From: an uncultured Pseudomonadales bacterium
Lineage (GTDB): Bacteria; Patescibacteriota; Microgenomatia; UBA1400; PJMF01
Reading direction: 5' to 3'
Length of the DNA: 64,000 nt
NCBI GenBank assembly: GCA_964574595.1
Contig: CAZNOF010000004.1
Span: 17,337-81,336, forward strand
Shown: positions 8,169-50,341 of the stretch, one piece after another
How the letters are laid out: the number at the start of each line of letters is the position of its first letter
How positions within the stretch are numbered: position 1 is the stretch's first letter
Translations under genes and position numbers: made by a program
Notes under the pieces: model-generated
What the model was told of the DNA's origin: nothing
Seen by the model: the letters and a program-made list of their open reading frames with translations, nothing else
Database searches by the model: none

Positions 8169-10097
8169 TTACTTTACATTGCTAAACACTTCACCGAGTG
8201 TGTTAAATAAATCCATGATATCTTCAGATCGAGAGATGGTACTGAAGTCGTCACTGGTGAATTCAAGCGCTCCTTCAACGAATGGGTTGACTCGGTTTAA
8301 ACGAGTATCTCTCGATATAAAGTTCTGAATTCGCTCCATATCTGTGCCTGGATATGTATCAGTTGGTAGCTGATTTACGGCGGCTTCAATCTGTGGGGTG
8401 AGTTCCTGGGCTTTTTGAAAAACGATTGATGGATTTGCTTTTTCACCTAAAGCTCTATGTATATATGGTTTGGCAACATCAGTGAGTTTGAGGATTAAAT
8501 CTCTTTTCAGATCTGCTCTCATCTGGTCAAGCTCTTTCACCCAATCCTTCAGCTCACTATCCTTATAATTCTGATACATCTTTTCAGCGATCTCTCTTAA
8601 TGCTGGTGTTATGATTTTATTTAAGACTGCCTCATCCATTCGAAATTTAAACTCGCCGTGTCGCTCTGGTGGTAAGGCAAAGAAGGCAGATTTCTGTTCT
8701 GTTACATTCTTCTTAAGAAGTTCCAAGTTATCATGCGCTTGTTTTAACGTGGGCACCTGATCTTTATTCTCTGCCAAAATGCTTAGGCACTCATCTAATG
8801 TGGTCGCCTCAGCAGCTCGTTTGGTGATCGCAGCTTCAATAGTTAACTTGGCTTCTGGACTCAACTCATTCCAAATTTTATCAGCTCTTTTAGCTGCCAA
8901 CTGAACGATCCTGTCAAGAATTTCTGGCTCTTTGATTGATGTACCAATCCATTCACGAATTCCATTTTCATCTAAAGGTGTCATATTTCTGTTTTTTCGT
9001 GCCTCAACCATTCCCTCAAATCGATCTAAAGTAATCATGTAATCATAAGCGAGCTGGGACATGGTTATTTCCGCCTCATTCGTCGCAGAGTATGGTTTAC
9101 TAAACTCTTGGAAAACTTTCCTTGCGTCATCGAAGTTTCTGACTCCCCCACCCAAGATAGTTCTGATCATGGAATCTTTTAACTGATCCAAGCTGGCTTC
9201 TGTTCGGCCAGTGTTTGTCTGATCATCAGAGAAATCGACCTTAAACTGTCTTGGAGCATCAATTGAAGTCTCCATCTGATCAAATGGCACACTTTCCGGA
9301 TTCACTGTATCTGGTCTGGTTGCGTCAACTTCAAAATGAGTCATATCAGATTCGGCGTCAGGATCAGTGTCCATCTCACCCACTGGTTCTGGCCTGGCGG
9401 AATCTTCACCGTCTTGAGGCTCTTTCCCCGGAGTTGTATCCATCTCACCGATGGGTTCTGGTCTGGCGACCTTGTATTTTCCATCTCCAATTTCGTCTGT
9501 ACGGAGTCCCTTATTGATAACTCTTTTTCTGATAATTTTTTGGGAAACCTCAGCCGCATAGCCTGCCAGGTTATCAACCATGATATTCATGATCGTGTCG
9601 GACTGCAGATAGTTTTCCAGAGCATCGTGAATATACTCACGAATACCCTGTTGTTCAGGGTTGAATTCAAGGAGAGCTTCGAGTTGTCCTGCAGTACCGG
9701 TTAATACTGACAAATATTGAGTTGCGGCTTGCTTTAAATATTGCTCTTCTTCTTTGTCTGAATCAGCCATGTTGGCGAGAGTGCTCAAATAATCGACGAG
9801 ATCTTTATAACTCCCTGCGGAAGCCATCGTTTTTTCGAGAGCCTTTGAGTAAACGTCGTTCACTGACATCTCTTTTCCAAGATCTCTTCCCTTGTCATCT
9901 TTTCTCTCGTACTTGGCAAAGTCGTCTCTAAGTGTCGTTTGTCTTCTATCCAAGCCAGCCATCTGCTTGGCAATGGTAGCATCTCTTATGGCTTCAGCTT
10001 CTTCATGGGTGTCAACTTCTTGTACTGGTTGGATAGGGCTGTGCTTGGCTTCATTCATACGTTCATAACTATATAACAAACCAATTTGCTTTGCCAT
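8169..10097 (-). CDS. hypothetical acidic protein (642 aa) with an internal tandem repeat ARPEP[IV]GEMDT[TD]P
   Basis: Long ORF with a conserved N-terminus MAKQIGLLYSYERMNEAKH. Repeat units are encoded around 9350..9480. Confidence 0.5.
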   Translation of the reverse strand: MAKQIGLLYSYERMNEAKHSPIQPVQEVDTHEEAEAIRDATIAKQMAGLDRRQTTLRDDFAKYERKDDKGRDLGKEMSVNDVYSKALEKTMASAGSYKDLVDYLSTLANMADSDKEEEQYLKQAATQYLSVLTGTAGQLEALLEFNPEQQGIREYIHDALENYLQSDTIMNIMVDNLAGYAAEVSQKIIRKRVINKGLRTDEIGDGKYKVARPEPIGEMDTTPGKEPQDGEDSARPEPVGEMDTDPDAESDMTHFEVDATRPDTVNPESVPFDQMETSIDAPRQFKVDFSDDQTNTGRTEASLDQLKDSMIRTILGGGVRNFDDARKVFQEFSKPYSATNEAEITMSQLAYDYMITLDRFEGMVEARKNRNMTPLDENGIREWIGTSIKEPEILDRIVQLAAKRADKIWNELSPEAKLTIEAAITKRAAEATTLDECLSILAENKDQVPTLKQAHDNLELLKKNVTEQKSAFFALPPERHGEFKFRMDEAVLNKIITPALREIAEKMYQNYKDSELKDWVKELDQMRADLKRDLILKLTDVAKPYIHRALGEKANPSIVFQKAQELTPQIEAAVNQLPTDTYPGTDMERIQNFISRDTRLNRVNPFVEGALEFTSDDFSTISRSEDIMDLFNTLGEVFSNVK

Positions 10098-10113
10098 CTG
10101 CTAGACTATACAT

Positions 10114-12498
10114 ATGTTGCAAAAAGCTCCGGAAATTACAGGTTTATCTTCAGCCCAAGTTCAGACTCAAATAAATGAAGGTCATCAGGTCAAATTACCA
10201 CTTCGCTCCAACCGAACGTATTGGAACATTATTCAAACCAACGTCTTTAACGTCTACAACGTGATCTTAATTGTTTCATCGTTGTTGGTCTTGTTGCTCA
10301 AAGGCAGCAAGGATGTCCTGGTAGCATTGACGCTGGTGTTAGCCAATATTGGCATTGGTCTTTTTCAAGAAATTCGAGCGAAGAGAACGTTGGATAAGTT
10401 GGCTACGCTGCAAACGCACGTGGTTCATGTTCGCCGGAATGGTCAAACAATGGAGATCCCACTGGCCACATTAGTCCAGGGCGATATCATTGAACTTTTT
10501 CCTGGCGAGCCAATTGTGGCTGACGGCAAGCTCCTCTACTCCGATAGTTTAGAGTTAGATGAATCTTCTCTAACAGGTGAATCAGAATCGGTGCCCAAGA
10601 AAGAACACGAGGAAGTCACTTCCGGAGCCTACTGTTTGGCTGGTTTTGGATTAATGAAAGCTGAAAAAGTGGGTGAGAAAAGTAGTCTCTACGAGTTAAC
10701 TGAAAAAGCCAAAAGTTTCCGTACCTCTCAAACCAGTTCTGAAAAATGGTTGAAGAAATTATTTCAATTTTTGCTCTATACGATTTTGATCTTAGCACCA
10801 CTTACATTAATTAGTGGGATAAATCAAGGTTTTTCTATACCACAAACCCTAACAAACGTCGTGAATTTAGTCAGCAGTTTAATCCCGCAAGGCATGATTG
10901 TGAGTATGACAATTTTATTTGCTTACGGGGTTGTGAATATTAGTAAACAAAATACGCTCATTCAGCGAGTCAACGTGATTGCGATTATGGGGACGATAAC
11001 TTTGTTGTGTGCTGACAAAACCGGCACGCTGACAACCAACCAACTGTCACTAGAAAAAATTATTCCTCTCAACGATCATCCCCTCTCTAAAATCAAAGCC
11101 GATCTCGTCCACTTCACCCAGCATGTTTCTTGGGCCAATAAAACCATGCAAGCCATCGCTACATTCTTGACCACTGAACCACATAAAGACACACCTCAAT
11201 TGATGAAAACTGCGGAAATTCCATTTACTTCCGAACGCAAATGGGGTGGCATGAGTTTTGAGGGCTTGTCATTAGTCTTGGGTGCGCCTGATATTTTGAC
11301 GACAGATGAAAAAATATTAGACCAGGTCACTGAGCTGGCCAAAAAAGGTTTCCGTGTCTTGGCTTTAGCTGAGTCAGAGCTTCCTCTTCAAAACAAAGAA
11401 GTCTTACCGAAACAATTGAAAGTCGTAGCATTGCTTACTTTCCAAGACCATCTTCGAACCGATGTAAAAGAGACAATTGCCGCCCTGGCCAAACAACATA
11501 TTCAACTTAAAATTATTTCTGGTGACAGTGCGGAAACGATTCGCAGTATTGCCGCTCAACTGCATTTGCCAATCTCATATTTATACCAGCAGTCAGACTT
11601 AGTTGATGTAGATCCAGACGAATTTTCTCGGAAAGTGAAGAATGGTCAATTCTTTGCCCGCATTACGCCTTCAATGAAGGAACGTATCATTGCGGAGCTC
11701 GTAGCTCAAGGTGAGTTAGTGGCCATGGTTGGTGATGGTGTCAATGATGTGCGGGCTCTGAAGAAATCTCACGTGGCGATTGCCGTCAATGAGTCATCCC
11801 AAATTACCAAAGATGTGGCAGATATTATTTTATTGGATAACTCTTTTGCTTCATTACCAAAGGCGATTGAAGAAGGTCGTGACATCACCCAGCGCGTTTA
11901 CGCAGTGGCTAAAATCTTTTTTGTGAAAGTGATTTATTTAATTACCCTGTTCTTATTAGCCGGCTTTGCCAGCTTTGCCTTCCCAATTTCTTTGCGTCAA
12001 ACGACTTGGCTCGGCTTCATTGTGGTTGGTGTACCTACCGCGTTGATCACCTTTAAAATTTTGCGACCAAGTGCCACCAAAAACATTCAAAAAGGCCTGG
12101 TACAGTACACGTTAACTGCCGGCATTATTGGTGGATTATTTATGGCGCTGATCATGATTGCCACACAGCTGATCTTCCAAAACGACATTGAAACGAGTCG
12201 CACGCAGGTGAGTTTATTTGCCTCTGTTTTTAGTAGCTTTATTTTGTTCCAAGTCCACGGTATCAACATTTTCTCATTCCCATCGGTGAAGAAAAATTGG
12301 CCATCATTTTTGATTATTGCTGCCATCGGCGCGATTGCGATTTTGTTCCCAAGTGAGTTAACACCTCGTGCATTTCAGTCAGCCCACTTAGACAGTTTAG
12401 ATTGGCTTATTTTGGCCTTTGGAATTGCCGGAAGCATAATGTTACTCCGCTTCATTCTGAAACGCGTAGCACGGTTCGTCGAGGCAAATGAATGGTAA
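10114..12498 (+). CDS. cation-transporting P-type ATPase
   Basis: DKTGTLT phosphorylation motif (CADKTGTLTTN). Hinge motif VGDGVNDVRALKKSHVAIAV. TM bundles before and after the cytoplasmic domain. Confidence 0.85.
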   Translation: MLQKAPEITGLSSAQVQTQINEGHQVKLPLRSNRTYWNIIQTNVFNVYNVILIVSSLLVLLLKGSKDVLVALTLVLANIGIGLFQEIRAKRTLDKLATLQTHVVHVRRNGQTMEIPLATLVQGDIIELFPGEPIVADGKLLYSDSLELDESSLTGESESVPKKEHEEVTSGAYCLAGFGLMKAEKVGEKSSLYELTEKAKSFRTSQTSSEKWLKKLFQFLLYTILILAPLTLISGINQGFSIPQTLTNVVNLVSSLIPQGMIVSMTILFAYGVVNISKQNTLIQRVNVIAIMGTITLLCADKTGTLTTNQLSLEKIIPLNDHPLSKIKADLVHFTQHVSWANKTMQAIATFLTTEPHKDTPQLMKTAEIPFTSERKWGGMSFEGLSLVLGAPDILTTDEKILDQVTELAKKGFRVLALAESELPLQNKEVLPKQLKVVALLTFQDHLRTDVKETIAALAKQHIQLKIISGDSAETIRSIAAQLHLPISYLYQQSDLVDVDPDEFSRKVKNGQFFARITPSMKERIIAELVAQGELVAMVGDGVNDVRALKKSHVAIAVNESSQITKDVADIILLDNSFASLPKAIEEGRDITQRVYAVAKIFFVKVIYLITLFLLAGFASFAFPISLRQTTWLGFIVVGVPTALITFKILRPSATKNIQKGLVQYTLTAGIIGGLFMALIMIATQLIFQNDIETSRTQVSLFASVFSSFILFQVHGINIFSFPSVKKNWPSFLIIAAIGAIAILFPSELTPRAFQSAHLDSLDWLILAFGIAGSIMLLRFILKRVARFVEANEW

Positions 12499-13204
12499 AA
12501 GTAGTGCCAGTGCCCGGCTTAGAAACAAACTCTAAGCTACCTCGGAAATGCGCTTCAATAATTTCGCGTGAGACATACAAGCCAATGCCCGTCCCCTGCT
12601 CTCCGGATTTGGTGGTGAACAGCGGTTCAAAGATTTGGCTTTGATCTTCTTCGCTCATGCCGCATCCCCAGTCCTGAACAGTGATCAAAATTTCTGCCGT
12701 TTCTTCTCTGATGGTGATAACTACCTTCTGGCCTTGGCAGTTTGATGGATAGGCGTCGAGGGCATTAGAAATCAAGTTCATCATGACTTGAAAAAATTGA
12801 GTTGAGTTGCCAAAGTGCTTGATGTCTTTCTGTTTGTTAATTTCTATTTTGATACTTTTAGACACAGCCTTCGATTTGAATAAAGAGACTGCCTGCTCAA
12901 TTTCCTGAGCCAACCAAAACTCACTCAAGACTTTCTTTTGCTGAATGTGCTGACGCGCCAATTGCAGAAATCTCACCATCCGTTGGGTTCCATCGAAGGC
13001 TCGGTTAATTGCTGTTTGAAATTCGGCGAAGTCTTCGTTGTCCATGCCTAATGATTGAGCTTTGAGTTCTTCTAAATTGAGCAGCACAATATTCAGAGGT
13101 GTTGCAAGATCGTGGAGTAAGCCAGCGGAGAGTCTGCCGAACTCGGCAAATTGTGACAGCTCTGCCAAGTTTTGCGCTTCAATTGAGTTGGTATCCAAGA
13201 CCAT
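12452..13204 (-). CDS. sensor histidine kinase (cytoplasmic, no TM segment)
   Basis: H-box LLHDLATPLN. N-box NLISNALDAY. G-boxes DWGCGM and GTGIGL. The 3' end overlaps the convergent ATPase gene by 47 nt. Confidence 0.75.
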   Translation of the reverse strand: MVLDTNSIEAQNLAELSQFAEFGRLSAGLLHDLATPLNIVLLNLEELKAQSLGMDNEDFAEFQTAINRAFDGTQRMVRFLQLARQHIQQKKVLSEFWLAQEIEQAVSLFKSKAVSKSIKIEINKQKDIKHFGNSTQFFQVMMNLISNALDAYPSNCQGQKVVITIREETAEILITVQDWGCGMSEEDQSQIFEPLFTTKSGEQGTGIGLYVSREIIEAHFRGSLEFVSKPGTGTTFTIHLPRRTVLRVSE

Positions 13205-13856
13205 AAATACTTTTAATAAATATTGATGTATCGTGTGAATTTATGAGAAGTTTTTTGCGAAGTTGTCTGATGTGAACGTCTATAGCATTGGTGTTTGGTT
13301 CGTCAGTTTCATCCCAAATATGTTCCAACAACATATCTCGCTTAATAATTTGGCCGCGGTGACGCACAAAGAATTCGAGAATCTGTCGCTCTTTTCTTCT
13401 GAGGTGAATTTCTTGATTGGCTTTCGTGACGGTGCCACTATTTATGTCGATGGTGATGTCGCCGTACTGCAAAGTGCGCTGTGGAGTCAGAAGTGGGTTT
13501 CGCCTAAATAGTGCTCGAATTCTGGCCAGTAATTCTTTTGTGGAAAAGGGTTTTGTCAGATAGTCGTCTACTCCGCCGTCTAAAGCTAGGACTTTGTCCT
13601 CAACTTCGCTGCGACCAGTCAGCATCAGGATGGGAGTTTTACAGTGATCGGCGCGGAGCTTGATACAAAGCTCTACTCCTGTTTCGTCTGGAAGATTAAA
13701 ATCGACGATCATGGCATCGTACTCATGAATTGCCGCCAGGTACTCACCTCGCTCAGCCGTGTAAGCAGTGTCCACAAGATACCGCGATTGCAAGGCATGA
13801 GTGAGCGTTTCCACGAGCTCAACATCGTCGTCTATGATCAGTAGGCGCATGTTCAA
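13179..13856 (-). CDS. OmpR/PhoB-family response regulator
   Basis: Receiver domain (LIIDDD...D...LMLTGR...K) plus winged-helix trans_reg_C domain (IHLRRKERQILEFFVRHRGQIIKRDMLLEHIW). Overlaps the kinase start by 26 nt. Confidence 0.8.
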   Translation of the reverse strand: MNMRLLIIDDDVELVETLTHALQSRYLVDTAYTAERGEYLAAIHEYDAMIVDFNLPDETGVELCIKLRADHCKTPILMLTGRSEVEDKVLALDGGVDDYLTKPFSTKELLARIRALFRRNPLLTPQRTLQYGDITIDINSGTVTKANQEIHLRRKERQILEFFVRHRGQIIKRDMLLEHIWDETDEPNTNAIDVHIRQLRKKLLINSHDTSIFIKSIYGLGYQLN

Positions 13857-29985: not shown

Positions 29986-30036
29986 TTCAGGTTTGGAATG
30001 TAGACAGCACTCTGATTTTTCGCTAAGCTTATTACC

Positions 30037-30474
30037 ATGTTCGAAAACAAAAAAACACGCGGTTTCACGCTCATTGAGTTAATGGTGGTCGTCACAATTA
30101 CGGGAATTATCATGGCCGCTGGAATTATTGCATTCACTAATGCCCAACGTAATTCTCGAGATTCAAAACGCAAAGCAGATGTGGACGCGATTTCCAAAGT
30201 CATGGAACAGTATTTCCAAATCAATCGAGTCTACCCTTTATCACCATACCCTGCGGCAATAGGTTCGTACTTCCCTGCTGGATATATTCCCACTACGCCA
30301 AACGGCGGCTCGTATACCATCACTTCCACTGCTTCAACGTACTGTATTTGTGACAAGTTAGACAAGCCAGCTACCGGCAATGCAACCAGTTTGGGATCTG
30401 GAGGAACTTGTGCCTATGTCTTACAAGCAAACGTTGGAACGGGTGACTATATTTGTACATCACAGCGTCAATAA
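30037..30474 (+). CDS. type IV pilin (prepilin with class III signal)
   Basis: KKTRG|FTLIELMVVVTITGIIMAAGI N-terminal methylation domain. C-terminal disulfide-loop Cys pair. Confidence 0.8.
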   Translation: MFENKKTRGFTLIELMVVVTITGIIMAAGIIAFTNAQRNSRDSKRKADVDAISKVMEQYFQINRVYPLSPYPAAIGSYFPAGYIPTTPNGGSYTITSTASTYCICDKLDKPATGNATSLGSGGTCAYVLQANVGTGDYICTSQRQ

Positions 30475-31508: not shown

Positions 31509-31991
31509 ATGAATCAATTTGACAATCGCGGTTTCACCCTCATTGAGTTGCTCGTAGCAGTTTCGATTATGGTGCTCATGTTTGGGGTGGGCATTAGTTC
31601 CTATATTCACTTCAATGATAATCAAACGGCAATCGTGACTGGTCAGAAAATTCAGCTGATGTTGCGAACAGCTCAGAAAAAAGCTCGGGTTGGTGATAAG
31701 CCTGCCGGGTGTGGAATTTTACAAGGATACCAAGTGAGTGGCTCTACTGCTGTAAATGCAGTGATAACCCTGAGTGCGATATGCAACTCGGGCACCTTAA
31801 TCAGTGCTGAGACCTATACCCTACCTAATGCAGTTAAGCTTAGTCAGAACCTGTTAATGAATTTTAAAGTACTTACTGGTGGTACTGATCAGCCAGGTAC
31901 AGTAACATTAACTGGAGGAACAGGAACTACTTACTCATTCACCGTGGGTGCGGGTGGAGATATTAGTGAAGGAACAACAGTCGCGCAATAA
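31509..31991 (+). CDS. minor pilin / pseudopilin
   Basis: NRG|FTLIELLVAVSIMVLMFGVGI. Confidence 0.7.
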   Translation: MNQFDNRGFTLIELLVAVSIMVLMFGVGISSYIHFNDNQTAIVTGQKIQLMLRTAQKKARVGDKPAGCGILQGYQVSGSTAVNAVITLSAICNSGTLISAETYTLPNAVKLSQNLLMNFKVLTGGTDQPGTVTLTGGTGTTYSFTVGAGGDISEGTTVAQ

Positions 31992-31996
31992 GAATT

Positions 31997-34900
31997 ATGC
32001 AGAAAAATCGTGGAGCTGCCCTACTAGAAGTGATCGTCGCAATTGGTATTGTGACGCTTGTCATGACCACGATTGTGAGTTTAGTTTCTGTCTCTCTGAA
32101 AAGTGCTTCTTTTGCTCAATCAAAAACGCTCGGCACTAAGTACTCCCAAGAAGGCATGGAGTCACTCAGACAAATGAGAACAGTGTTGGGTTGGGATTCT
32201 TTCTTAGCCACTCTCCAAGCGGATGGAACAACGATTCGCTACTGTTTGCCCACAGTGCCCCGCTCTGCTACCGAATTTGCGGCTTTAACAAATGCAGCTT
32301 GTTCTTCATCCCAATTTGTCGATGCCAAAAATTTGTTTCAACGACAGGCTGATATTACCGTGACCACCAATGCAGGTAGGACCTCTGTGGCCATCACTGT
32401 TAGAACAACTTGGAATGACTCCGGTGTTCAAAAGACTTCTACAATTAATCAACAATTTGAGCAGTACAACGTTGATGACGCTCCTGCCCCGATTATTTAT
32501 AGTCCTTTACCATATATTCCGTATGGTTTTACAGCTGGAATTTGGCTGTATCGACAGGCTATTCCAGTCACTAACTCATCAGGTTCGGCATTAACTGATT
32601 ATCAAGTTATGGCGACTCTGAATACTTCGTCCCTGATCTCAGCCAATAAAATGCAAAGTAACTGCGCGGACTTGCGAGTTACAACTTCTGATGGAACGAC
32701 CAATATTCCCTACTGGATCGAGCCATCTACCTGCAACACCGCCAGCACAAAAGTGTGGATAAAAGTCCCCAATATTCCAACATCAGGTACCACGCTGTAT
32801 GCGATTTATGGCAATGCCAATGCGACTGAAGCAGGTTACTTCACAACTGACGTTTTCGTTCGAAACATTACATCTTTAGGTGCTGCTTACGCAATGAATG
32901 AATCAGTTTGGTCTGGAGCCGCCGGTGAAGTCAAAGATACCAGTGGCAACAACAATAATGGTACCCCAACAGCGGCTAGTATCACGTCTGGGAAGTTTGG
33001 AAATGGTGGACTTTTTAACGGTACTGCATCTCTAGTCACCGTGCCTGATAGTCCGACCGTTGGTCCAACCTCGATTGTCTCAGTAGCAGCCTGGTTGAAG
33101 ACCACGGCTACCAATGTGAATGGTGTGGTTGTGGGAAAAACGACGGGTTGCGCCACAACTGGTTACCTTGTTTGGTTGAATGAAAATGCTGTGGGTGCTG
33201 GTAAACCAGGATTTTATACAAATCCCGGTGGCTGGCTGGTAGCGTCTAACGTCATTAATGACAATAACTGGCACTACGTTGTAACGACATTTAACGGGGC
33301 AACTGCAAATGTATATGTCGACGGAGTCTTATCTATTAGTGCAGCCAGAACTGCAAATTTAGATAATGTGAATCCGCTACAAATTGGTGGCTCAAATGCT
33401 GCCGGAGGTGGCTGCGCGAACCAGTGGTTCAATGGAGTGCTGGATGATGTTCAGATTTACGACAAATATCTCTCAGCAGCTGAAGTAACAGATATGTTTG
33501 GTGCAGGGAAAAACCAAGTCTACTCTACTACCAATTTCCCAAGTGTCGGCTTAGTTCGTAAGCTTGTTGGTGGTGTGAGCGTAGGATCTACTGGTGCCGA
33601 ACAAGTAGGTAGCTATGTATTTAGCAGTCAGGTTGCGGCAGATGTTGCAGTTGTTGCTAACTATAAATTTAATGAAGGTGGTGGTACTACCGTCGCCGAT
33701 TCAAGCGGAAGTGGTCTGACAGGGACCTTTGCCGGAACTGGAACTCACTGGGTTCGGGCTGGACTTGATCACATGGCAGGTACCTTTAATGGTGCTGGTG
33801 ATGGTGTGAGTTTGGGAAGTCCAACCCAGTTGGACTTTGGAGATAATGGACCATTCACTTTTGATGGATGGATCAAACCAAGTCTCTTAAAAGATTATGG
33901 TGGTTTTGTCAGTAAAAATACGGCTGGAAGACTTAATCCATATTCCTATATGACAGTGACGATGGCGAATGGTCGCCTAGCAGCGTACAACGGTGCGAAC
34001 TGGATCGACCTCTGCCCTGCCGGCTCAGTTGTGCAAGGAGCGTGGCAGCACATCGCATTCTCATACAATGGCTCAATTTTAAACGGATACGTGAATGGAA
34101 ATAACTGTGGTTCTGTCCCGTTTACATATACGGATAATGCAGCATATGCCGTTTGGATTGGTAGCTGGTATAGCCCGGTCACAGTCTATGACTTTAATGG
34201 CACGATTGACGAAGTCAAAATTTACAGCGGTGCATTAACAACAGCTCAAGTCCAAGCAGATTACCAAGCTGGTGCAGCAATTTTCAACCCAATATTTAAC
34301 TTAGCCTTCAATGATGGGACAGGTTCAGTCATTAGTGATAGCGGGACTAATAATTTAGATGGAACTTGGGTTGGAACAGGAGCCCACTGGGTAGGCAGTT
34401 CTCCAAACTACGCTGGGAAATTTAATGGGAATGGTGATGGTGTCAATATGGGTACTAATGCTCTCTACAATCTTGGCAGCAGTGAGCCATTTAGTCTTGA
34501 GGGCTGGGTTAAACCGGCGGTCATGAAAGACTATGCTGGCTTTATTTCAAAGGATGCAGCTGGAAGAACTTCTCCTTACTCATACTTAACAGCCATCATG
34601 GCGGATGGTCGCCTCTTTATCTATGACAATGTTGTTGGCTGGCACAGTATTTGTGCTGCTGGTTCAGTGACCGTAGGAAATTGGCAGCATATTGCCATTA
34701 CTTTTGACGGCGCAACGGTTAATGGGTATGTGAACGGAGTGGCGTGTGGTAGTGTTGCTGGATTTACTTACGTTGACACACCAACACATTATGTAAACAT
34801 TGGTAGCTGGTCAAACGGTCTTGTCTACGACTTTAATGGCTTGATGGATCAAATGTCGATGTACGACTACAAGCGGTCCGCCACTCAAATTCTGGCTGAT

Positions 34901-35884
34901 AAGAATGCCTATACACCTCCTGCAAGTAATGTGTGGGCGTATCGAGTTCCAATTACCATTACTAACACGTATGGAAGTACCTTAAGTAATTACCAGGTGA
35001 AAACGGTTATGAATACTGCAGCTCTTGTGACTGCTGGAAAGATGAATGCTGATTGTTCTGACCTGCGGATCACCGCCTCTAATGGGACTACTGCCCTTCC
35101 CTATTGGGTAGAAACTGGTACAAACGGTTGTAATACGGCTGCTACTGCAGTTTGGGTAAAAGTTCCTTCTATTCCGACATCTGGAGTGTCACTGTACGCA
35201 TACTATGGAAATGGTCTGGCAACTACCACTGAAGATGGAAATCAGACCTTTGATTTTTTTGACGATTTTTCCGATACAACTTTGGATTCAGCGAAGTGGA
35301 CATCTTCAGCTGGGGCGGCAGGCTATACCGTGAGTGGTGGAATTTTGACTGTCCTAACAGGCTCAATTTATTCAAAAGCCCCGGTGACTGCTTCTGTACA
35401 GAATGAACAATTTGAGATGCGAAATGCTTGGGGTTCAGTCTACGTTTATTATTCAGGACTGACTCTTTCAGAAACGAGTGCTGTCGCAGGAGGAAACGCT
35501 GGTGCTAGTACGATGGCAATGCTTCAAACGGTGGGTGCTAGTCAACCAGTGGCAGCTTACTCCTCCGATGGTGTAGCCGCCGGGTACAATTTGCAGAGCG
35601 CTGTTGCTTACAGCACTCCGGTTGCGGCAACATACTACATCACTGGAATTGGATACTCACCTACGGCTTTGACCACCTATAAAGATCGAGTTGCTGTGAA
35701 TTCTGCAGCTACATCAATAGGTTACTCTCCATATTTAAGTTTAGGTTTCTTTTTTGGATCCGGTGCAGGCACACAAGATGTCACCAACTTGTTTGTCGAC
35801 TTCGTAGTCGCCAGAAAATCAGTCACTCCAGCACCAGCTGCTGCCGTCTCCACAGAACAAACAGGTACCTGGTCAGGGTTATAA
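31997..35884 (+). CDS. giant (1295 aa) MshQ-like minor pilin/adhesin: prepilin N-terminus, 2 DUF2341-like domains, 3 LamG (ConA-like lectin) domains
   Basis: N-terminus NRGAALLEVIVAIGIVTLV. Repeated blocks F(N/T)G.GDGV..G.......PF...GW.KP...KDY.GF.SK...W.H.A....G....GYVNG..CGS...FNG..D...(I/M)Y. Two blocks Y(R/A)...I.TN..GS.L..YQV....NT..L.....M...C.DLR.T.S.GTT..PYW.E......T....VW.KVP.IPTSG..LYA.YGN. Confidence 0.7.
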   Translation: MQKNRGAALLEVIVAIGIVTLVMTTIVSLVSVSLKSASFAQSKTLGTKYSQEGMESLRQMRTVLGWDSFLATLQADGTTIRYCLPTVPRSATEFAALTNAACSSSQFVDAKNLFQRQADITVTTNAGRTSVAITVRTTWNDSGVQKTSTINQQFEQYNVDDAPAPIIYSPLPYIPYGFTAGIWLYRQAIPVTNSSGSALTDYQVMATLNTSSLISANKMQSNCADLRVTTSDGTTNIPYWIEPSTCNTASTKVWIKVPNIPTSGTTLYAIYGNANATEAGYFTTDVFVRNITSLGAAYAMNESVWSGAAGEVKDTSGNNNNGTPTAASITSGKFGNGGLFNGTASLVTVPDSPTVGPTSIVSVAAWLKTTATNVNGVVVGKTTGCATTGYLVWLNENAVGAGKPGFYTNPGGWLVASNVINDNNWHYVVTTFNGATANVYVDGVLSISAARTANLDNVNPLQIGGSNAAGGGCANQWFNGVLDDVQIYDKYLSAAEVTDMFGAGKNQVYSTTNFPSVGLVRKLVGGVSVGSTGAEQVGSYVFSSQVAADVAVVANYKFNEGGGTTVADSSGSGLTGTFAGTGTHWVRAGLDHMAGTFNGAGDGVSLGSPTQLDFGDNGPFTFDGWIKPSLLKDYGGFVSKNTAGRLNPYSYMTVTMANGRLAAYNGANWIDLCPAGSVVQGAWQHIAFSYNGSILNGYVNGNNCGSVPFTYTDNAAYAVWIGSWYSPVTVYDFNGTIDEVKIYSGALTTAQVQADYQAGAAIFNPIFNLAFNDGTGSVISDSGTNNLDGTWVGTGAHWVGSSPNYAGKFNGNGDGVNMGTNALYNLGSSEPFSLEGWVKPAVMKDYAGFISKDAAGRTSPYSYLTAIMADGRLFIYDNVVGWHSICAAGSVTVGNWQHIAITFDGATVNGYVNGVACGSVAGFTYVDTPTHYVNIGSWSNGLVYDFNGLMDQMSMYDYKRSATQILADKNAYTPPASNVWAYRVPITITNTYGSTLSNYQVKTVMNTAALVTAGKMNADCSDLRITASNGTTALPYWVETGTNGCNTAATAVWVKVPSIPTSGVSLYAYYGNGLATTTEDGNQTFDFFDDFSDTTLDSAKWTSSAGAAGYTVSGGILTVLTGSIYSKAPVTASVQNEQFEMRNAWGSVYVYYSGLTLSETSAVAGGNAGASTMAMLQTVGASQPVAAYSSDGVAAGYNLQSAVAYSTPVAATYYITGIGYSPTALTTYKDRVAVNSAATSIGYSPYLSLGFFFGSGAGTQDVTNLFVDFVVARKSVTPAPAAAVSTEQTGTWSGL

Positions 35885-43942: not shown

Positions 43943-44521
43943 ATGAAAATCTATTTCAGTGCAGCTATCTACGCGAAAGAGAAATACGACAAGTACTATC
44001 TTCAGATTGCGAAAACACTGGAGAGTTTGGGTCATGCTGTTCAGCATGAACATATCACCGGGGCAGTAAGTCTTGACGACATAAAGAGTGATACTCAGGA
44101 ACAAACCGACGCCTATTACAAAAAATTTCTCCGCTGGATGAATGCCGCTGATATCGTCGTTTTCGAAGCTTCTTTCCCATCAAGTTTAAACATTGGTCAT
44201 GAAATCACTTTAGCTTTAGACAAAGGCAAGCCAGTAGTTGTCTTCTACAAAAAAGGATTTGATTCCATTTTCTTAAACGGTTTGCATTCCGATAAACTCT
44301 TCTTAGTTGAATACACTGATGAAAACTTAGTTGAAACTGTCAAAGACAGTATCGATTATGCCAAGGATCAATCAGACACTCGATTTAACTTTTTCTTGCC
44401 ACCATCCTTAATGTCTTACATGGACTGGATTTCTGAGAAACGAAAAGTTCCTCGATCCGTTTATTTGCGAGAATTAATTGAGCGAGACCGCGAACGAAAT
44501 CGCGAGTACAACGAAGCGTAA
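43943..44521 (+). CDS. nucleoside 2-deoxyribosyltransferase-like (Rossmann/flavodoxin-like) domain fused to a C-terminal ribbon-helix-helix-like motif
   Basis: KIYFSAAIY....ADIVVFEASFPSSLNIGHEITLALDKGKPVVVF parallels the NDT/DNPH1 family, with the Glu of GHE at the catalytic position. Tail RFNFFLPPSLMSYMDWISEKRKVPRSVYLRELIERD resembles RHH/CopG. Confidence 0.45.
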   Translation: MKIYFSAAIYAKEKYDKYYLQIAKTLESLGHAVQHEHITGAVSLDDIKSDTQEQTDAYYKKFLRWMNAADIVVFEASFPSSLNIGHEITLALDKGKPVVVFYKKGFDSIFLNGLHSDKLFLVEYTDENLVETVKDSIDYAKDQSDTRFNFFLPPSLMSYMDWISEKRKVPRSVYLRELIERDRERNREYNEA

Positions 44522-45254: not shown

Positions 45255-45303
45255 GCTATCTGCCCCTATTTACTCCACACCTCGCCTTTGCTAAGCTTAT
45301 CTC

Positions 45304-46242
45304 ATGTGGAATTTCTCGGATCGAACAGTTCAAGTCAGAACAGCAATTATCACGTTGGTGGGAATTCTAGCTGTCTTTGGGGTGATTTTTGTAATTTTGT
45401 TAAATAAATCTGGGATTACAAACACTGACAGTGGATCCGGAAGTGGCACTCAAACAGCTGAAAAGTCTAGGCCAGAAACGGTCGATGTATCACCATTTAT
45501 TCCTGTTAACACTATCTCCCCAATGATCAAGCCATGTCTGTTTGTTTTACTGAATTCTTGTGCTGAAACAGTAGGTGCCTCAATTGCTGTCGATCCTAAC
45601 CCAGTAGTGGATCCCACTAAAAATACAGGTGATGAGCAAAAGGCAGTTGATGATGTTTACGCAACAATTCATATGGGCTCGAATCCGGGGTTAGCGAGTT
45701 ACTCGGCGCCGATCGATAAAAATATGGTGGCTGCCTACTTTCCAGAATACAAACAGACGGCAAGCACCAGTGCATTGACAGTACCTTCAGGTATTGTGGT
45801 TGGGCGTGTAGCGGCAAAATTTGATATTAATCAACGTGTCCTACTAGGATTAATGGCAGTGGTAAATCGCGGCGGTGGTCCTCTCTTCTCTTCCTCAAAT
45901 GACTACACCACACCTTATTTCGCCAAAGATCCAGGATTCTTAAAACAATTAGTCGCAGTGGCCACAGATCTAGAGGCTACTAAAACAAAATATGTACTCA
46001 TGCAGTCAGACCAAAAGAAATTGCCTACTGCCGTGACCTTCTTTGGAAAGCAGTACACGGTTGATCCCAAGACAAATGCCGAGTCCTTAGCCATTGCCGA
46101 CTTTTTAAGCAGAAACATCTCAGATAAAAAGGATTTTGAGCGCGCAATATACTTCCCACAATCTCCAGATACATCTGGAATTCCAATTTCTCAGAACTTC
46201 ATTTTGTTGTATCAAACCATGTATAAGATCAATCCATATTGA
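45304..46242 (+). CDS. hypothetical membrane-anchored extracytoplasmic protein
   Basis: N-terminal TM helix followed by a GSGSGT linker. Preceded by the conserved TTTGCTAAGCTTATC pre-ATG motif. Confidence 0.5.
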   Translation: MWNFSDRTVQVRTAIITLVGILAVFGVIFVILLNKSGITNTDSGSGSGTQTAEKSRPETVDVSPFIPVNTISPMIKPCLFVLLNSCAETVGASIAVDPNPVVDPTKNTGDEQKAVDDVYATIHMGSNPGLASYSAPIDKNMVAAYFPEYKQTASTSALTVPSGIVVGRVAAKFDINQRVLLGLMAVVNRGGGPLFSSSNDYTTPYFAKDPGFLKQLVAVATDLEATKTKYVLMQSDQKKLPTAVTFFGKQYTVDPKTNAESLAIADFLSRNISDKKDFERAIYFPQSPDTSGIPISQNFILLYQTMYKINPY

Positions 46243-46285
46243 TCTTTACAGTCACTGAAAGCTTGATACAATCAGAAAAATACTG

Positions 46286-47050
46286 TTGAGCTACATTATG
46301 GTTCTTGAAGAACGCTTTGAGCAAACAAATACCTTCGACATCCCTTTCTCAAAAGAACGACATCCTTCCTATTTTCAAATTGCTATCGATGGTCCGATGG
46401 GCGCTGGTAAAACGGCAGTCTCAGAAATGGTCGCTAAAGAGCTGGGTTTGCTGTTTATTAGCACAGGACAACTCTATCGGTCGCTGACACTCTTAGCCTT
46501 ACGAGAAAATGTCTCGCTTGATGATGAACAAGGGCTGTTGCAACTTCTGCAATCACACAACATTGTGCTTAAGCCCGCCTCCCACACAGATGGGAACGAG
46601 AAAGCGTGCGTCTACATTGATGATGAAGACGTGACCGAGTATCTGCACGATAACGTAATTAGTCAAAAGACGCCCCAAGCAGCACGGCACAAGTTAGTTC
46701 GTGCCGAAATTGTTAAAAAGCAGCAAGCCTTTATTGATTCAGGTTCCGTGATCATGGAAGGGCGTGATATTACCCACACAGTTTTGCCGCAGGCGCAATT
46801 AAAGATTTATCTAGATGCTGCTCCGGAAGCTCGCGCATATCGCAGATGGTTGGATGTAGTAGTAAAAAATCCCAAGATCACACTGGAAGATGTATTGGCA
46901 GATCTTTATGCGCGTGATGCTCAAGATTCCAAAGAAAACCTCCGGAAAGTGCCCGGCGTGTGGATCATTGATACTACAGACATGCCAATTGAAGATGTCG
47001 TGAATGTCATTTGTGACAGAGTCCGAGCGATGATGGGCAAGCTCATCTAA
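46286..47050 (+). CDS. cmk: cytidylate kinase (N-terminal extension of about 30 aa relative to typical CMK)
   Basis: IAIDGPMGAGKTAV P-loop followed by STGQLYRSLT (compare DTGAMYR). LID arginines. About 220-aa core. Confidence 0.75.
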   Translation: MSYIMVLEERFEQTNTFDIPFSKERHPSYFQIAIDGPMGAGKTAVSEMVAKELGLLFISTGQLYRSLTLLALRENVSLDDEQGLLQLLQSHNIVLKPASHTDGNEKACVYIDDEDVTEYLHDNVISQKTPQAARHKLVRAEIVKKQQAFIDSGSVIMEGRDITHTVLPQAQLKIYLDAAPEARAYRRWLDVVVKNPKITLEDVLADLYARDAQDSKENLRKVPGVWIIDTTDMPIEDVVNVICDRVRAMMGKLI

Positions 47051-47094
47051 TGGTCGCTATTTACTCTGCTCTTCCCCTTTGCTAAGCTTATCCT

Positions 47095-47910
47095 ATGGAA
47101 AATGTTTTTCCGAAGCGTCGTGCTACTCAATCAGGCCAAATTGGTATTATTGTCGTGCTAATTATGGTGGTCTTGCTGACAATTGGTTTGTCTTTAGCAA
47201 GTCGAACCACCAAAGAAGTTGCGTTATCTACTCAAGAAGAAGAATCTACCCGTGTCTTTAATGCGGCTGAAGTTGGTGTGGAGCAAGCGCTCTCTTCTAA
47301 TCTCGCTTTTGCTGGTGATGTGTACACTTCAAATCCAATTACTCCAGCTGGTTCCAACTCTACTGTGACGTACACCATTAATAAGCAGTACCAACTCCAA
47401 ATGCAGATTTTTCAAGGTGTGAGTGCCATGATTCAGCTAACTGATGCAACGCATCCGACGCCACCTTCATCACTTTATACGGATTGGTCAATCGAAAATA
47501 GCTGTGCAACGCAAACTCCGGCAGCATTGTTAGTCTCGATTTACTCAGTTGATAACACTACATTACCACCTTCTGTAAAAGTCAGATATCAAACGTTTGA
47601 TCCTTGTTCTAGAGGAAATAACTTCAACACGGCTGGGATTGCTGCTGGTCAAAATGGCTACTTTAAGCGAGCAACTATTTCCTTACAGCCAAGTGATAGT
47701 TTTGTTCGAATAAAGCCAATTTATAACGACACCAAAATGTTAGTTCAACCAAGTTCAGGTCAGATGCCAGTTCAGTCTTATGCCATTCGTTCTACGGGAA
47801 ACAACAACGGCGGTACGGAAAACCGGAACGTCCAGGTTGTGAGAAGTTTACCCTCAGCTCCGTCCATCTTTGATTATGTCTTATTCAGTGGAAGTACTAT
47901 CGTTAAGTAG
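47095..47910 (+). CDS. PilX_N-like type IV pilus minor assembly protein
   Basis: N-terminus QSGQIGIIVVLIMVVLLTIGLSLASRTTKEVALSTQEEESTRVFNAAEVGVEQAL resembles the PilX N-terminal domain. Sits immediately upstream of pilMNO. Preceded by the conserved pre-ATG motif. Confidence 0.5.
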   Translation: MENVFPKRRATQSGQIGIIVVLIMVVLLTIGLSLASRTTKEVALSTQEEESTRVFNAAEVGVEQALSSNLAFAGDVYTSNPITPAGSNSTVTYTINKQYQLQMQIFQGVSAMIQLTDATHPTPPSSLYTDWSIENSCATQTPAALLVSIYSVDNTTLPPSVKVRYQTFDPCSRGNNFNTAGIAAGQNGYFKRATISLQPSDSFVRIKPIYNDTKMLVQPSSGQMPVQSYAIRSTGNNNGGTENRNVQVVRSLPSAPSIFDYVLFSGSTIVK

Positions 47911-47933
47911 TGGAGTTAAAGGAAGGCCTGCCT

Positions 47934-48950
47934 ATGCCACAATTATCTGTCGCAATTGATTTGGGAAGTTATGCAGTTAAAGCGTTACAAGTCAGACAAG
48001 GAAAAAAACTTGTTATTGAGCGTGCAATTGAAGTGCCCAACTCTGTTGGTGTCAGCAGTCCAACAGATGATGTAACAGCCGACAAACTCGTTCAACTTAT
48101 TACCAATATCTTTACTGACCATAAACTCAGTAAGGCTGATGTTCGATTAGCTCTTCCAGAAGCTCTCGTTTCCACCAAGATTATCTCCATTCCAGTCTTA
48201 ACTGATGCTGAGCTAGCTTCTGCAATCAACTGGCAGGCTGAGCAGCATATTCCTATTCCACTTGATGAGTTATCTCTCGAGTACCAAGTCCTCTATCGAC
48301 CAGATAAAAAGAATCAAAATGAACAAATGCGGGTCTTAATGGTGGGTACTCGAAAAGTCTTAATTGAAAAATATTTAAATGTTTTCCTAAGAGCTGGCAT
48401 TGAACCAAGTATTCTGGAAACCCAAACGATCGCTTTAATTCGAGCCATGCAGTTTACCGCTGAAGATGCGCCTACGCTCGTCGTGAACATGGGTGCGGTT
48501 TCCACTGATTTAGCAATTGTGTATCAAGGTGAGTTGCGATTTGTTTACACCTTTAACAGTGGTGGCCAAGTTCTCACCAGAACAACTGAACAAGCTGTGC
48601 AGCTCGATGCCAAACAGGCTGAAGAGTACAAACGCACTTACGGGTTAGATGGTTCTCAATTGGCTGGCAAAATGCGCGATATTCTATTGCCACCAGTCAA
48701 GACAAGTATTTTAGAGATGCAAAAAGCACTTCAGTTCTTCGCGTCTCAAAACACCTTGGATCCTGTCAAAAGAGTCTTATTGGCAGGCGGCGGCTCTCAA
48801 TTACCTGGTCTATCCCAATTTATTGCTGAGCAGCTGAACTGTGAGGTGCTGATGGCTGCCCCATTTACCAATGTAGAAGGTGAAATTCCGGCTGCAAACC
48901 AGCTTGCCTATGGAGTGGCAATGGGATTGATCTTGAAACCGTTAAAATAA
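47934..48950 (+). CDS. pilM: type IV pilus assembly protein PilM (actin-like ATPase fold)
   Basis: Start moved to the ATG with AAGGAAGG Shine-Dalgarno 7 nt upstream. N-terminus MPQLSVAIDLGSYAVKALQV. About 340 aa. Confidence 0.75.
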   Translation: MPQLSVAIDLGSYAVKALQVRQGKKLVIERAIEVPNSVGVSSPTDDVTADKLVQLITNIFTDHKLSKADVRLALPEALVSTKIISIPVLTDAELASAINWQAEQHIPIPLDELSLEYQVLYRPDKKNQNEQMRVLMVGTRKVLIEKYLNVFLRAGIEPSILETQTIALIRAMQFTAEDAPTLVVNMGAVSTDLAIVYQGELRFVYTFNSGGQVLTRTTEQAVQLDAKQAEEYKRTYGLDGSQLAGKMRDILLPPVKTSILEMQKALQFFASQNTLDPVKRVLLAGGGSQLPGLSQFIAEQLNCEVLMAAPFTNVEGEIPAANQLAYGVAMGLILKPLK

Positions 48951-48953
48951 GCT

Positions 48954-49508
48954 ATGTCACGAGAAATTAACTTTCTATCTGATCGACACAAAGAGATCGT
49001 CAAACAAGAACTTGCTGATCGTCGAATCATGACGCTTTGCTCGATTGGTTTAGGAATTTGTTTTGCGATATTTGTGGCATTTTCGGCTATTCAACTCTTC
49101 TTCTCGTATCAGTTGAATAAAACCAAAGTTGAAGAAGCCTCGTTAAGACAACAGATTGTTGGTGATCAGGAGACCGAACGAACTTTTGTGATTTTTGTTC
49201 ATAAATTGAGCAGCTTAGTGCAAATTGATCAAGATCGACAAGATAAAAAAGTGATTATTCAGTTCTTTAACACCTATTTTGGTGGTTCGATTTCGATTGT
49301 GGGTGTGGAGTTTAATCAATCTCAAAAATTACTGACCTTAAAATTAGAATCTGACTCAGTTTTCACTTTAAAGAATGTTTTAACTAAACTGAATGACCCG
49401 GAAGTACTATCTAAGTTCTCTTCTGTCAGTCCGAGCAACTTAACTAGAACACCAGATGGCAAATATCAAATAGATGTCACAGTTTCGACTGTAGCTCCGA
49501 AAATATGA
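48954..49508 (+). CDS. pilN: PilN-like bitopic pilus alignment protein
   Basis: Single N-terminal TM helix (IMTLCSIGLGICFAIFVAF) then periplasmic domain. Position after pilM. Confidence 0.55.
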   Translation: MSREINFLSDRHKEIVKQELADRRIMTLCSIGLGICFAIFVAFSAIQLFFSYQLNKTKVEEASLRQQIVGDQETERTFVIFVHKLSSLVQIDQDRQDKKVIIQFFNTYFGGSISIVGVEFNQSQKLLTLKLESDSVFTLKNVLTKLNDPEVLSKFSSVSPSNLTRTPDGKYQIDVTVSTVAPKI

Positions 49509-50341
49509 AATTAGACTTTAAAAAAGAAAACATTCAAGCATTTTTGTTCAGTCGTAGGTACGTCTTGTTTGCTGGCTTGATGGTAATAATTGGTTTAGGC
49601 ATTGTGATTTTGGGTGTTTTCGCTCAAATTAGCGGCTTGATCGATCTGGTCAACGCGAATAACACAGCTCATGAAACCACTGTTCAGCTGCAAAAGAAGG
49701 CCAAGTCTCTTCAAGAAGTAAACTACTTAGAGGAATTTTCTAAGAGTAGCCAAGTTGACCTTGCCTTGCCATCTGAAAAGCCACTTCTTCAACTTATTAC
49801 CGGGGTAAATAGTGTTGCCCAACAAGCTGGCGTGAGTATTTCCGATGTCACCACTTCCCCCGGAAAATTGGCCACCCAGAGTGCAGTCTTGAATTTAAAT
49901 GGGACGGTGAGTAGCCCTACTTCCTCTGGTTTGGATGACACCAAGTCTACGGTCAATGGCGTCAACATTTTAACCATTGGCATGAAAGCTCGTGGTTCAC
50001 TTGCTCAAATTAACTCTTTCTTAGACTTAATTGAGAAGATTACGCCAATTACCCAAGCTACTAGATTGAAACTCGCCATAGATACAAATCAGGCTGCTCC
50101 AAAAGTTGCTTCTGGCTCTGCAGCTCCAGTCACAGGCAGCCAATATGAAGCTGAGCTAGAACTCAGTACCTATTACTTCTCACAACCAATTTCAGTGACG
50201 ATTGATACTCCGTTACCAAGTATTGGCGTCAAAGAAGAAGCATTCTTGAAGAGTTTGGATACGTTCCAATTCCCAGATTATCAGAAACAGCAACAAATCC
50301 AGGGTGGCGGATCAACAGACCTATTTGGCACCAGTCAATAA
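49505..50341 (+). CDS. pilO: PilO-like bitopic pilus alignment protein
   Basis: Start overlaps the pilN stop (ATGA). TM helix YVLFAGLMVIIGLGIVILGVF then coiled-coil segment. Confidence 0.5.
   Translation: MKLDFKKENIQAFLFSRRYVLFAGLMVIIGLGIVILGVFAQISGLIDLVNANNTAHETTVQLQKKAKSLQEVNYLEEFSKSSQVDLALPSEKPLLQLITGVNSVAQQAGVSISDVTTSPGKLATQSAVLNLNGTVSSPTSSGLDDTKSTVNGVNILTIGMKARGSLAQINSFLDLIEKITPITQATRLKLAIDTNQAAPKVASGSAAPVTGSQYEAELELSTYYFSQPISVTIDTPLPSIGVKEEAFLKSLDTFQFPDYQKQQQIQGGGSTDLFGTSQ

Follow-up and report, generated by a model that had tools for sequence, protein, structure and literature searches.

The 64-kb window analysed here (the whole stretch of DNA, from contig CAZNOF010000004.1, with a guanine-cytosine (GC) content of about 42%) carries a short motif, GCTAAGCTTAT, just before the start codons of three genes: pilin 1 (30037), a 312-amino-acid (aa) protein without family match (45304), and a PilX-like gene heading pilMNO (47095). 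A first-pass annotation had proposed this repeated motif, and its sequences were found where they had been placed. Exact copies of the 11-mer begin at 30022, 45290, and 47081, all on the + strand, compared to 0.01 ± 0.10 expected from shuffled sequences, and none of 100 shuffles reached three copies. Against its significance, the count with one mismatch allowed was not significant by itself. Each exact copy ends 2-4 nucleotides (nt) short of the start codon, and each of these start codons belongs to a real gene. These results confirmed the repeated motif. The gene assignments held as well: pilin 1 matches N_methyl, and the gene at 47095 has a weak PilX_N match and is followed by pilM. The relatives of the window proteins are named Patescibacteria, or Candidate Phyla Radiation (CPR).

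The three sites and the genes behind them are listed below. Site 1 precedes the 312-aa gene, site 2 the PilX-like gene, and site 3 pilin 1; the promoter elements are putative.

45269-45274, + strand: site 1, -35 hexamer TTTACT, within block CTATTTACTC (45266-45275), 17 nt upstream of the -10
45289-45297, + strand: site 1, extended -10, TGC plus TAAGCT (hexamer 45292-45297)
45304-46242, + strand: gene of the 312-aa membrane-anchored protein, after a 6-nt gap TATCTC behind the -10, no Shine-Dalgarno (SD) sequence
47060-47065, + strand: site 2, -35 hexamer TTTACT, within block CTATTTACTC (47057-47066), 17 nt upstream of the -10
47080-47088, + strand: site 2, extended -10, TGC plus TAAGCT (hexamer 47083-47088)
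47095-50341, + strand: PilX-like operon, after a 6-nt gap TATCCT behind the -10
47095-47910, + strand: PilX-like gene, Pfam match to PilX_N weak
47934-48950, + strand: pilM, SD-led, Pfam PilM_2 at 4.5e-46
48954-49508, + strand: pilN-like gene, within the PilX-like operon
49505-50341, + strand: pilO-like gene, within the PilX-like operon
30001-30006, + strand: site 3, -35 hexamer TAGACA, 17 nt upstream of the -10
30024-30029, + strand: site 3, -10 hexamer TAAGCT, with CGC before it and a 7-nt gap TATTACC after it
30037-30474, + strand: pilin 1 (prepilin), N_methyl at 1.5e-09, orthologues align well

Sites 1 and 2 have the same layout, namely TTTACT, a 17-nt spacer ending in TTTGC, TAAGCT, 6 nt, and ATG, and site 3 consists of TAGACA, 17 nt, TAAGCT, 7 nt, and ATG. 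The TAnnnT hexamer ends 6, 6, and 7 nt before the start codon, inside the 5-8 nt range of a sigma-70-type -10 in this arrangement. The -35-like hexamers stand at 17 nt, within the range of 16-18 nt, and are joined at sites 1 and 2 by TGC, a TGn extension of the -10. Together these two sites make up a direct repeat of 41 nt. Its copies, at 45266-45306 and 47057-47097, lie 1791 nt apart and share 83% identity, which is confined to the blocks CTATTTACTC and CCTTTGCTAAGCTTATC with 9 variable nt between them. The intergenic spacers that hold the motif are 49, 44, and 51 nt long. The lack of an SD, which the first-pass annotation had also reported, was borne out: a GGAG-type SD was found at none of the three sites, while a clear AAGGAG stands some 6-10 nt before the start of many other genes in the window. 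The internal genes of the PilX-like operon start via SD or overlapping starts.

Conservation of the sites in related genomes

Orthologous sites were compared in eight genomes (the window, L001/L096, L003, L016/L098, L019, L100, L101/L103, and L102), in which the PilX-like proteins are 70-84% identical. This sample contains 18 sites, that is, 14 site-1/site-2 copies and four pilin-1 sites. All 18 start with ATG, none has a GGAG-type SD, and T-12, A-11, and T-7 are unchanged throughout, while the middle positions of the hexamer vary. Position -1, read from the stacked sequences, is C or T in 16/18.

Among the 14 site-1/site-2 copies, TGC at -15 to -13, T-12, A-11, T-7, and the 6-nt gap to ATG are all invariant, and the -35 TTTACT is kept in 12 (5/6 at site 1 and 7/8 at site 2); L102 has no recognisable -35 at site 1. 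The hexamer is TAAGCT in ten copies, TACGCT in two, and TACGAT and TATCCT in one each. At site 2, for example, L100 carries TATCCT and L101 TACGCT with the register unchanged. The spacer and the 6 nt preceding ATG vary freely. The four pilin-1 orthologues retain the order of -35, 17 nt, TAnnnT, 7 nt, and ATG, with the 7-nt gap in 4/4 and the hexamers TAAGCT (twice), TAGCAT, and TATGAT. Their -35 is TAGACA in L096 and L103 and TGTACA in L100.

The palindrome TAAGCTTA, which had been stressed as part of the core of the motif, did not withstand this comparison. It is present at all three sites of the window, and a fourth copy lies at 31835 inside a pilin coding region. Among the orthologues, however, it is replaced by TAAGCTAA (L019 and L102), TACGATGA (L003), TATCCTGA (L100), TACGCTAA (L101), and TAGCATGA (L103), and one-sided changes break it in L019, L003, L100, L101, and L103, so that the inverted repeat is not conserved across the orthologous sites. 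In these alignments the conserved unit is TGC, followed by the T, A, and final T of the hexamer, plus the spacings. The middle positions are the least constrained part of a -10. Their variation therefore points to selection on the key positions of a sigma-70-type -10 and on the spacings, rather than on TAAGCTTA.

A -10-like box immediately before the gene is also seen in more distant PilX-like orthologues (30-57% identity, about 70 loci), often 6-9 nt from ATG. The ancient feature is therefore a promoter at this position, and the exact motif is a young form of it, specific to the clade. L023-L032 were set against L037-L049 and L068-L077 in the region upstream of the PilX-like gene (about 9940-10000 in most loci). 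Some subclades are leaderless-type, with TATGAT, TATCAT, or TACAAT 6-9 nt before ATG. Another is leadered, with TATACT, a leader of about 35 nt, and a GGAG SD. Since the same orthologous gene is leaderless-type or leadered depending on the subclade, CPR lineages appear to switch the mode of initiation.

Leaderless-type starts in the lineage and the promoter interpretation

The distance between TAnnnT and the start codon was then counted over the first-ATG open reading frames (ORFs) of the window, L001, and L003. A single sharp peak was found at the 6-nt gap, with 17/76 ORFs compared to about 2.6 per offset (binomial P = 7e-10). The peak persisted in a larger sample, in which TAnnnT ends 6 nt before ATG at 31/148 starts (20.9%) in the close clade and at 74/658 (11.2%) in distant CPR loci, compared to 0.9% of 10,498 internal ATGs. 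In the window itself, TAnnnT stands at exactly 6 nt in 11/50 ORFs, and an SD is present at about 15 by our count.

When the motif sites were excluded, 96 sites with this arrangement were left. They have a pyrimidine at -1 in 85%, an enrichment of TG at -15/-14 (T 46%, G 41%), and a weak TTnA signal at -35. Their commonest hexamers are TATAAT, TAAGAT (in second place), and TATACT; TAAGCT of the motif differs from TAAGAT by one base. Parts of the motif also recur at other promoters, with ATTTACA at those of pilD and cmk and TTTGnTA at that of a DNPH1-like gene upstream of site 1. The start of rpsP is also leaderless-type (TTGAGA-17-TATAAT-8-ATG). These results suggest that about 10-20% of the ORF starts in this group of Patescibacteria are leaderless-type.

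We therefore consider it likely that each of the three sites is a promoter of the sigma-70 family, of the housekeeping type, that would give a leaderless mRNA. A -10 ending 6-7 nt before the A of ATG is expected to place the transcription start on that A, and RNA polymerase would thus start at 30037, 45304, and 47095 (predicted +1). The ribosome would then initiate directly on the 5'-terminal AUG without SD pairing. Leaderless initiation on a 5'-terminal AUG is established knowledge, and it would explain why no SD is present at the three sites. In the downstream genes of the operon, such as pilM, initiation would rely on an ordinary SD or on the overlap of start and stop codons. The first-pass annotation had named a promoter for near-leaderless transcripts among its possible explanations, and that proposal is now strongly supported by the positions of the elements, the footprinting, and the lineage-wide peak of the -10 relative to ATG.

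Several points weigh against this interpretation. The case for leaderless promoters is built wholly from sequence. TAAGCT matches TATAAT at just 3/6 positions, and a consensus promoter scanner (at least 4/6 per hexamer and 9/12 overall) does not flag sites 1 and 2. The scanner misses them because of this 3/6 match, which reflects a threshold of the tool and not a defining biological requirement. Some of the TAnnnT-6-ATG matches fall in upstream coding sequence and are possibly false positives, and the counts from the close clade lack independence, as its loci are in part orthologous. Moreover, three features go beyond what generic promoter constraints would explain. First, the unrelated site 3 has the same 11-mer as sites 1 and 2; the chance of sharing it is about 4e-5 per promoter and about 5e-4 across the window, as estimated post hoc from the position frequencies of the 96 sites. 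Second, AGC is kept in the middle of the hexamer in 10/14 copies. Third, both sites of L101 have changed jointly.

Other promoter-like sites were seen in the window. A 16-bp intergenic sequence, CTGCTAGACTATACAT (10098-10113), separates the divergent genes 8169-10097 (- strand, 642-aa protein) and 10114-12498 (+ strand, P-type ATPase). It contains the overlapping -10 boxes TAGACT (+) and TATAGT (-), each 6-7 nt from its ATG, and both genes look leaderless, with putative promoters that extend into each other's coding sequence. The cmk gene has an apparent promoter of its own, TTTACA-16-TGaTACAAT, within 46245-46298, the only TG-extended site in the region that the scanner flagged. Its leader would be short (about 13-25 nt, depending on whether the start is TTG 46286 or ATG 46298), and no SD is evident.

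Several gene calls in the data also appear to be mis-started. P0003 (L003 2535-3530) has a non-conserved N-terminal extension of 30 aa that is translated through the promoter, and the L103 pilin P0138 (431-874) was called from 521 and thus without its prepilin leader. In the window, 13179-13856, 21165, 23738, 52874, and 60877 are longest-ORF starts at TTG or GTG, with an ATG shortly downstream that has TAnnnT 5-8 nt before it. L100 10001/10013 is also among these mis-started leaderless gene calls.

Neighbouring genes and alternative explanations

The region upstream of site 1 contains the following gene:

43943-44521, + strand: DNPH1/Rcl-like domain with a C-terminal strand-helix-helix tail, PDB profile match at 2e-19, neighbour of the element

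The gene is genetically linked to the PilX-like operon, and its product is a candidate DNA-binding protein. The Pfam match to RHH_3, a ribbon-helix-helix (RHH) family, is sub-threshold, and the PDB profile match covers the DNPH1-like domain only. The gene stands directly upstream of the PilX-like gene and pilMNO operon in 31 CPR loci. Orthologues of the fusion were observed in L001, L003, L016, L100, and L020-L075. The Rcl-like domain resembles a 2'-deoxynucleoside 5'-phosphate N-hydrolase, and conservation within the protein is highest in the tail of about 45 aa (RFNFFISP..YLDWIS..KKIPRSVYLRxLIExD). In L020, L023, L026, L030, and L032 an extra gene ending in ...SVYLRRLI... precedes the DNPH1-like gene.

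The 312-aa protein gave no Pfam, NCBIfam, or PDB match, and its AlphaFold2 model (mean predicted local distance difference test score, 50.6) was too poor for a fold search. Its family is tiny: an exhaustive profile search among 1.84e9 sequences found 20 representatives, all apparently from CPR and without a known domain. The N-terminus MWNFS is conserved in homologues. In L016/L098 the homologue lies elsewhere, on the other strand upstream of a methyltransferase gene, and its leaderless-type promoter is a different one.

Sites 1 and 2 probably arose by duplication of a single promoter. This would have happened when the 312-aa gene, alone or together with cmk, came to lie between the DNPH1-like gene and the PilX-like operon, since genomes that do not have that gene here have one copy of the site. 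Together with the different promoter of the L016/L098 homologue, the duplicated look of the two sites leaves the earlier assignment of the 312-aa protein to the pilus regulon weak.

Further along, 31997-35884 encodes a 1295-aa protein with a pilin-like N-terminus (weak GspI/PilV) and a TafC-like region; DUF2341 and Laminin_G_3 domains occur in its relatives. A giant tip pilin or an adhesin that closes the row of pilin genes is a possible identity for this protein.

Among the alternatives, the one that survives best is that GCTAAGCTTAT marks a small pilus-specific regulon, whose leaderless promoters would be read by a dedicated factor, either an alternative sigma factor or a repressor or activator bound over the -10 and the start site; the DNPH1-like/RHH protein encoded just upstream is one candidate. 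We regard this as unlikely, although the three features named above are in its favour. The exact 11-mer is common to two otherwise unrelated promoters, different in -35 and spacer and both driving pilus genes, and the non-consensus AGC is found not only in the orthologous copies but also, in a second genome, in the promoter of the pilin gene. Linkage of the DNPH1-like/RHH gene to the PilX-like gene is seen in the 31 loci, and the strand-helix-helix tail of its product hardly varies. Nevertheless, pilB, pilD, and pilins 2-4 of the window are without the motif, the common -10 TAAGAT, one base from TAAGCT, occurs at unrelated genes, and the canonical -35, 17-nt spacer, and TGn of sites 1 and 2 are typical of a housekeeping sigma factor. 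The one-sided changes in TAAGCTTA also argue against a palindromic operator, the RHH call is below the Pfam threshold, and no operator-like DNA motif common to the flanks of the DNPH1-like/RHH gene was found across 22 orthologous loci.

The joint change in L101 allowed a test of this regulon, which predicts that the pilin promoter of that genome should have changed as well. At 8989 and 10001 of L101, about 1 kb apart, both copies carry CCCTTTACTC and TACGCT in place of the CTATTTACTC and TAAGCT of other genomes, and their spacers differ. The pilin promoter of the same genome, however, has TAGCAT and does not covary with them. The concerted change is thus better explained by an exchange between nearby paralogous copies, and gene conversion is its most likely cause.

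A scan of a genome collection with TTTACTCN{11,13}TTGCTAAGCTTA gave 11 matches, all in unrelated phyla, compared to about 13 expected by chance on a rough estimate. The source lineage is apparently absent from this collection, and no regulon can be read from it. The stronger version, in which the three promoters form a dedicated switch of pilus expression and the non-consensus -10 and start-site core GCTAAGCTTAT is retained because a specific factor binds it and gates the transcription of pilin and PilX-pilMNO, seems to us quite improbable. Such a factor might be the DNPH1-like domain fused to the RHH tail, encoded upstream in at least 31 CPR loci. If the switch were real, a signal derived from deoxynucleotides could control the gating, and this would bear on the uptake of DNA by these pili.

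The first-pass annotation had also suggested a translational operator or an alternative element that recruits the ribosome. In either case the motif would act at the RNA level, inside a leadered or read-through mRNA. The motif occupies the usual position of an SD, and the upstream genes end just 44-51 nt away without a clear terminator, so read-through is conceivable. If transcription starts at ATG, however, the motif would lie outside the mRNA altogether. The folding z-scores of the three sites (+0.9, +0.1, and +1.9) are no better than those of shuffles, so no stable or conserved structure is seen. Rfam at the gathering threshold matches only tRNA-Ala, and the substitutions in the orthologues are one-sided without compensation. 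The -35-like block, the variable 17-nt spacer, and TAnnnT are the signature of a DNA promoter, part of which lies too far upstream for a ribosome-binding site, and the sequence between the hexamer and ATG is not conserved. The AAGGAG at SD-led genes of the window indicates an ordinary anti-SD. Both RNA-level proposals are left unsupported, and this explanation is very improbable.

It is hardly credible that the 41-nt repeats are non-functional scars, either attachment-site-like (att-like) or a duplication junction, left by the insertion of a 1.8-kb segment with the 312-aa gene and cmk. Direct repeats do stand on both sides of the segment, and L016 and L100, which are without it, have one copy each. 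The decay of scars should be uniform, yet two blocks are invariant while the 9-12 nt between them are randomised and the 312-aa protein has diverged to 48-58% identity. Each copy also keeps the exact 6-nt register to ATG, the single-copy genomes retain the motif as the PilX-like promoter, and site 3 belongs to no repeat pair. An att-site or insertion scar was rejected because of this block-wise conservation and the fixed register.

Sigma-54-dependent promoters (GG-N10-GC) drive the pilin genes of Proteobacteria, and the sites resemble them in that a pilin gene is driven and TTGCT is similar to the -12 element TTGCW. A sigma-54 promoter (GG at -24 and GC at -12, 10 nt apart) was nevertheless rejected: TTGC is present, but no copy has GG 10-11 nt upstream, and the sites differ further in the conserved T, A, and T of the -10 and in the -35 at 17 nt. 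The variants TACGAT and TACGCT are similar to TACGAATA, the cin-box of streptococcal ComX; this resemblance was set aside because 10/14 copies have TAAGCT, together with the canonical -35, the 17-nt spacer, and TGn.

Known leaderless systems and significance

In TA-led leaderless genes, TANNNT precedes the start by about 12 bp (Zheng et al., 2011, PMC3160421). In group C of GeneMarkS-2, which is found mostly in Actinobacteria and Deinococcus-Thermus, genes with a Pribnow box at a distance of 6-8 nt occur alongside SD-led ones (PMC6028130). The -10-motif of D. radiodurans has been validated experimentally (PMC12340547), and the leaderless transcriptome of M. tuberculosis provides a further case for comparison (PMC3898074). 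A Nanosynbacter data set of transcription start sites (PMID 35975994) is cited in PMC12641261. Our literature search found no paper describing leaderless genes in CPR/Patescibacteria.

The sites described here share with the TA-led and group C genes a first T of TAnnnT about 12 nt before the start, a gap of 6-8 nt, an ATG start, and the absence of an SD. They also share the presence of SD-led genes in the same genome, the SD in internal genes of the operon, and the genome-wide positional peak. Unlike in the best-documented leaderless lineages, Actinobacteria and Deinococcus-Thermus, the host belongs to Patescibacteria/CPR and has a GC content of about 42%. A further difference is the clear -35 and TGn extension that stand beside the -10, and the transcription starts here are predicted ones.

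Extended -10 promoters of Gram-positive bacteria, with TGn or a "-16 region TRTG", were reportedly described by Voskuil and Chambliss in 1998. The TTTGC directly before the hexamer is similar to this extension and might compensate for the 3/6 match of the -10. The upstream base at sites 1 and 2 is T and not the R of TRTG.

Dispensing with an SD by means of a promoter at the ATG is a known mechanism, and its apparent commonness in this CPR group adds interest. The puzzling lack of an SD at the three genes would be explained by this mechanism, and the three +1 positions predicted above are testable. The finding also matters for annotation, since gene callers tuned to SD mis-start leaderless-type genes, and the position of the -10 would correct the starts of CPR genes. 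The corrected starts would include the signal peptides of surface proteins relevant to the episymbiotic lifestyle. In addition, such short native promoters could serve the emerging genetics of Patescibacteria.

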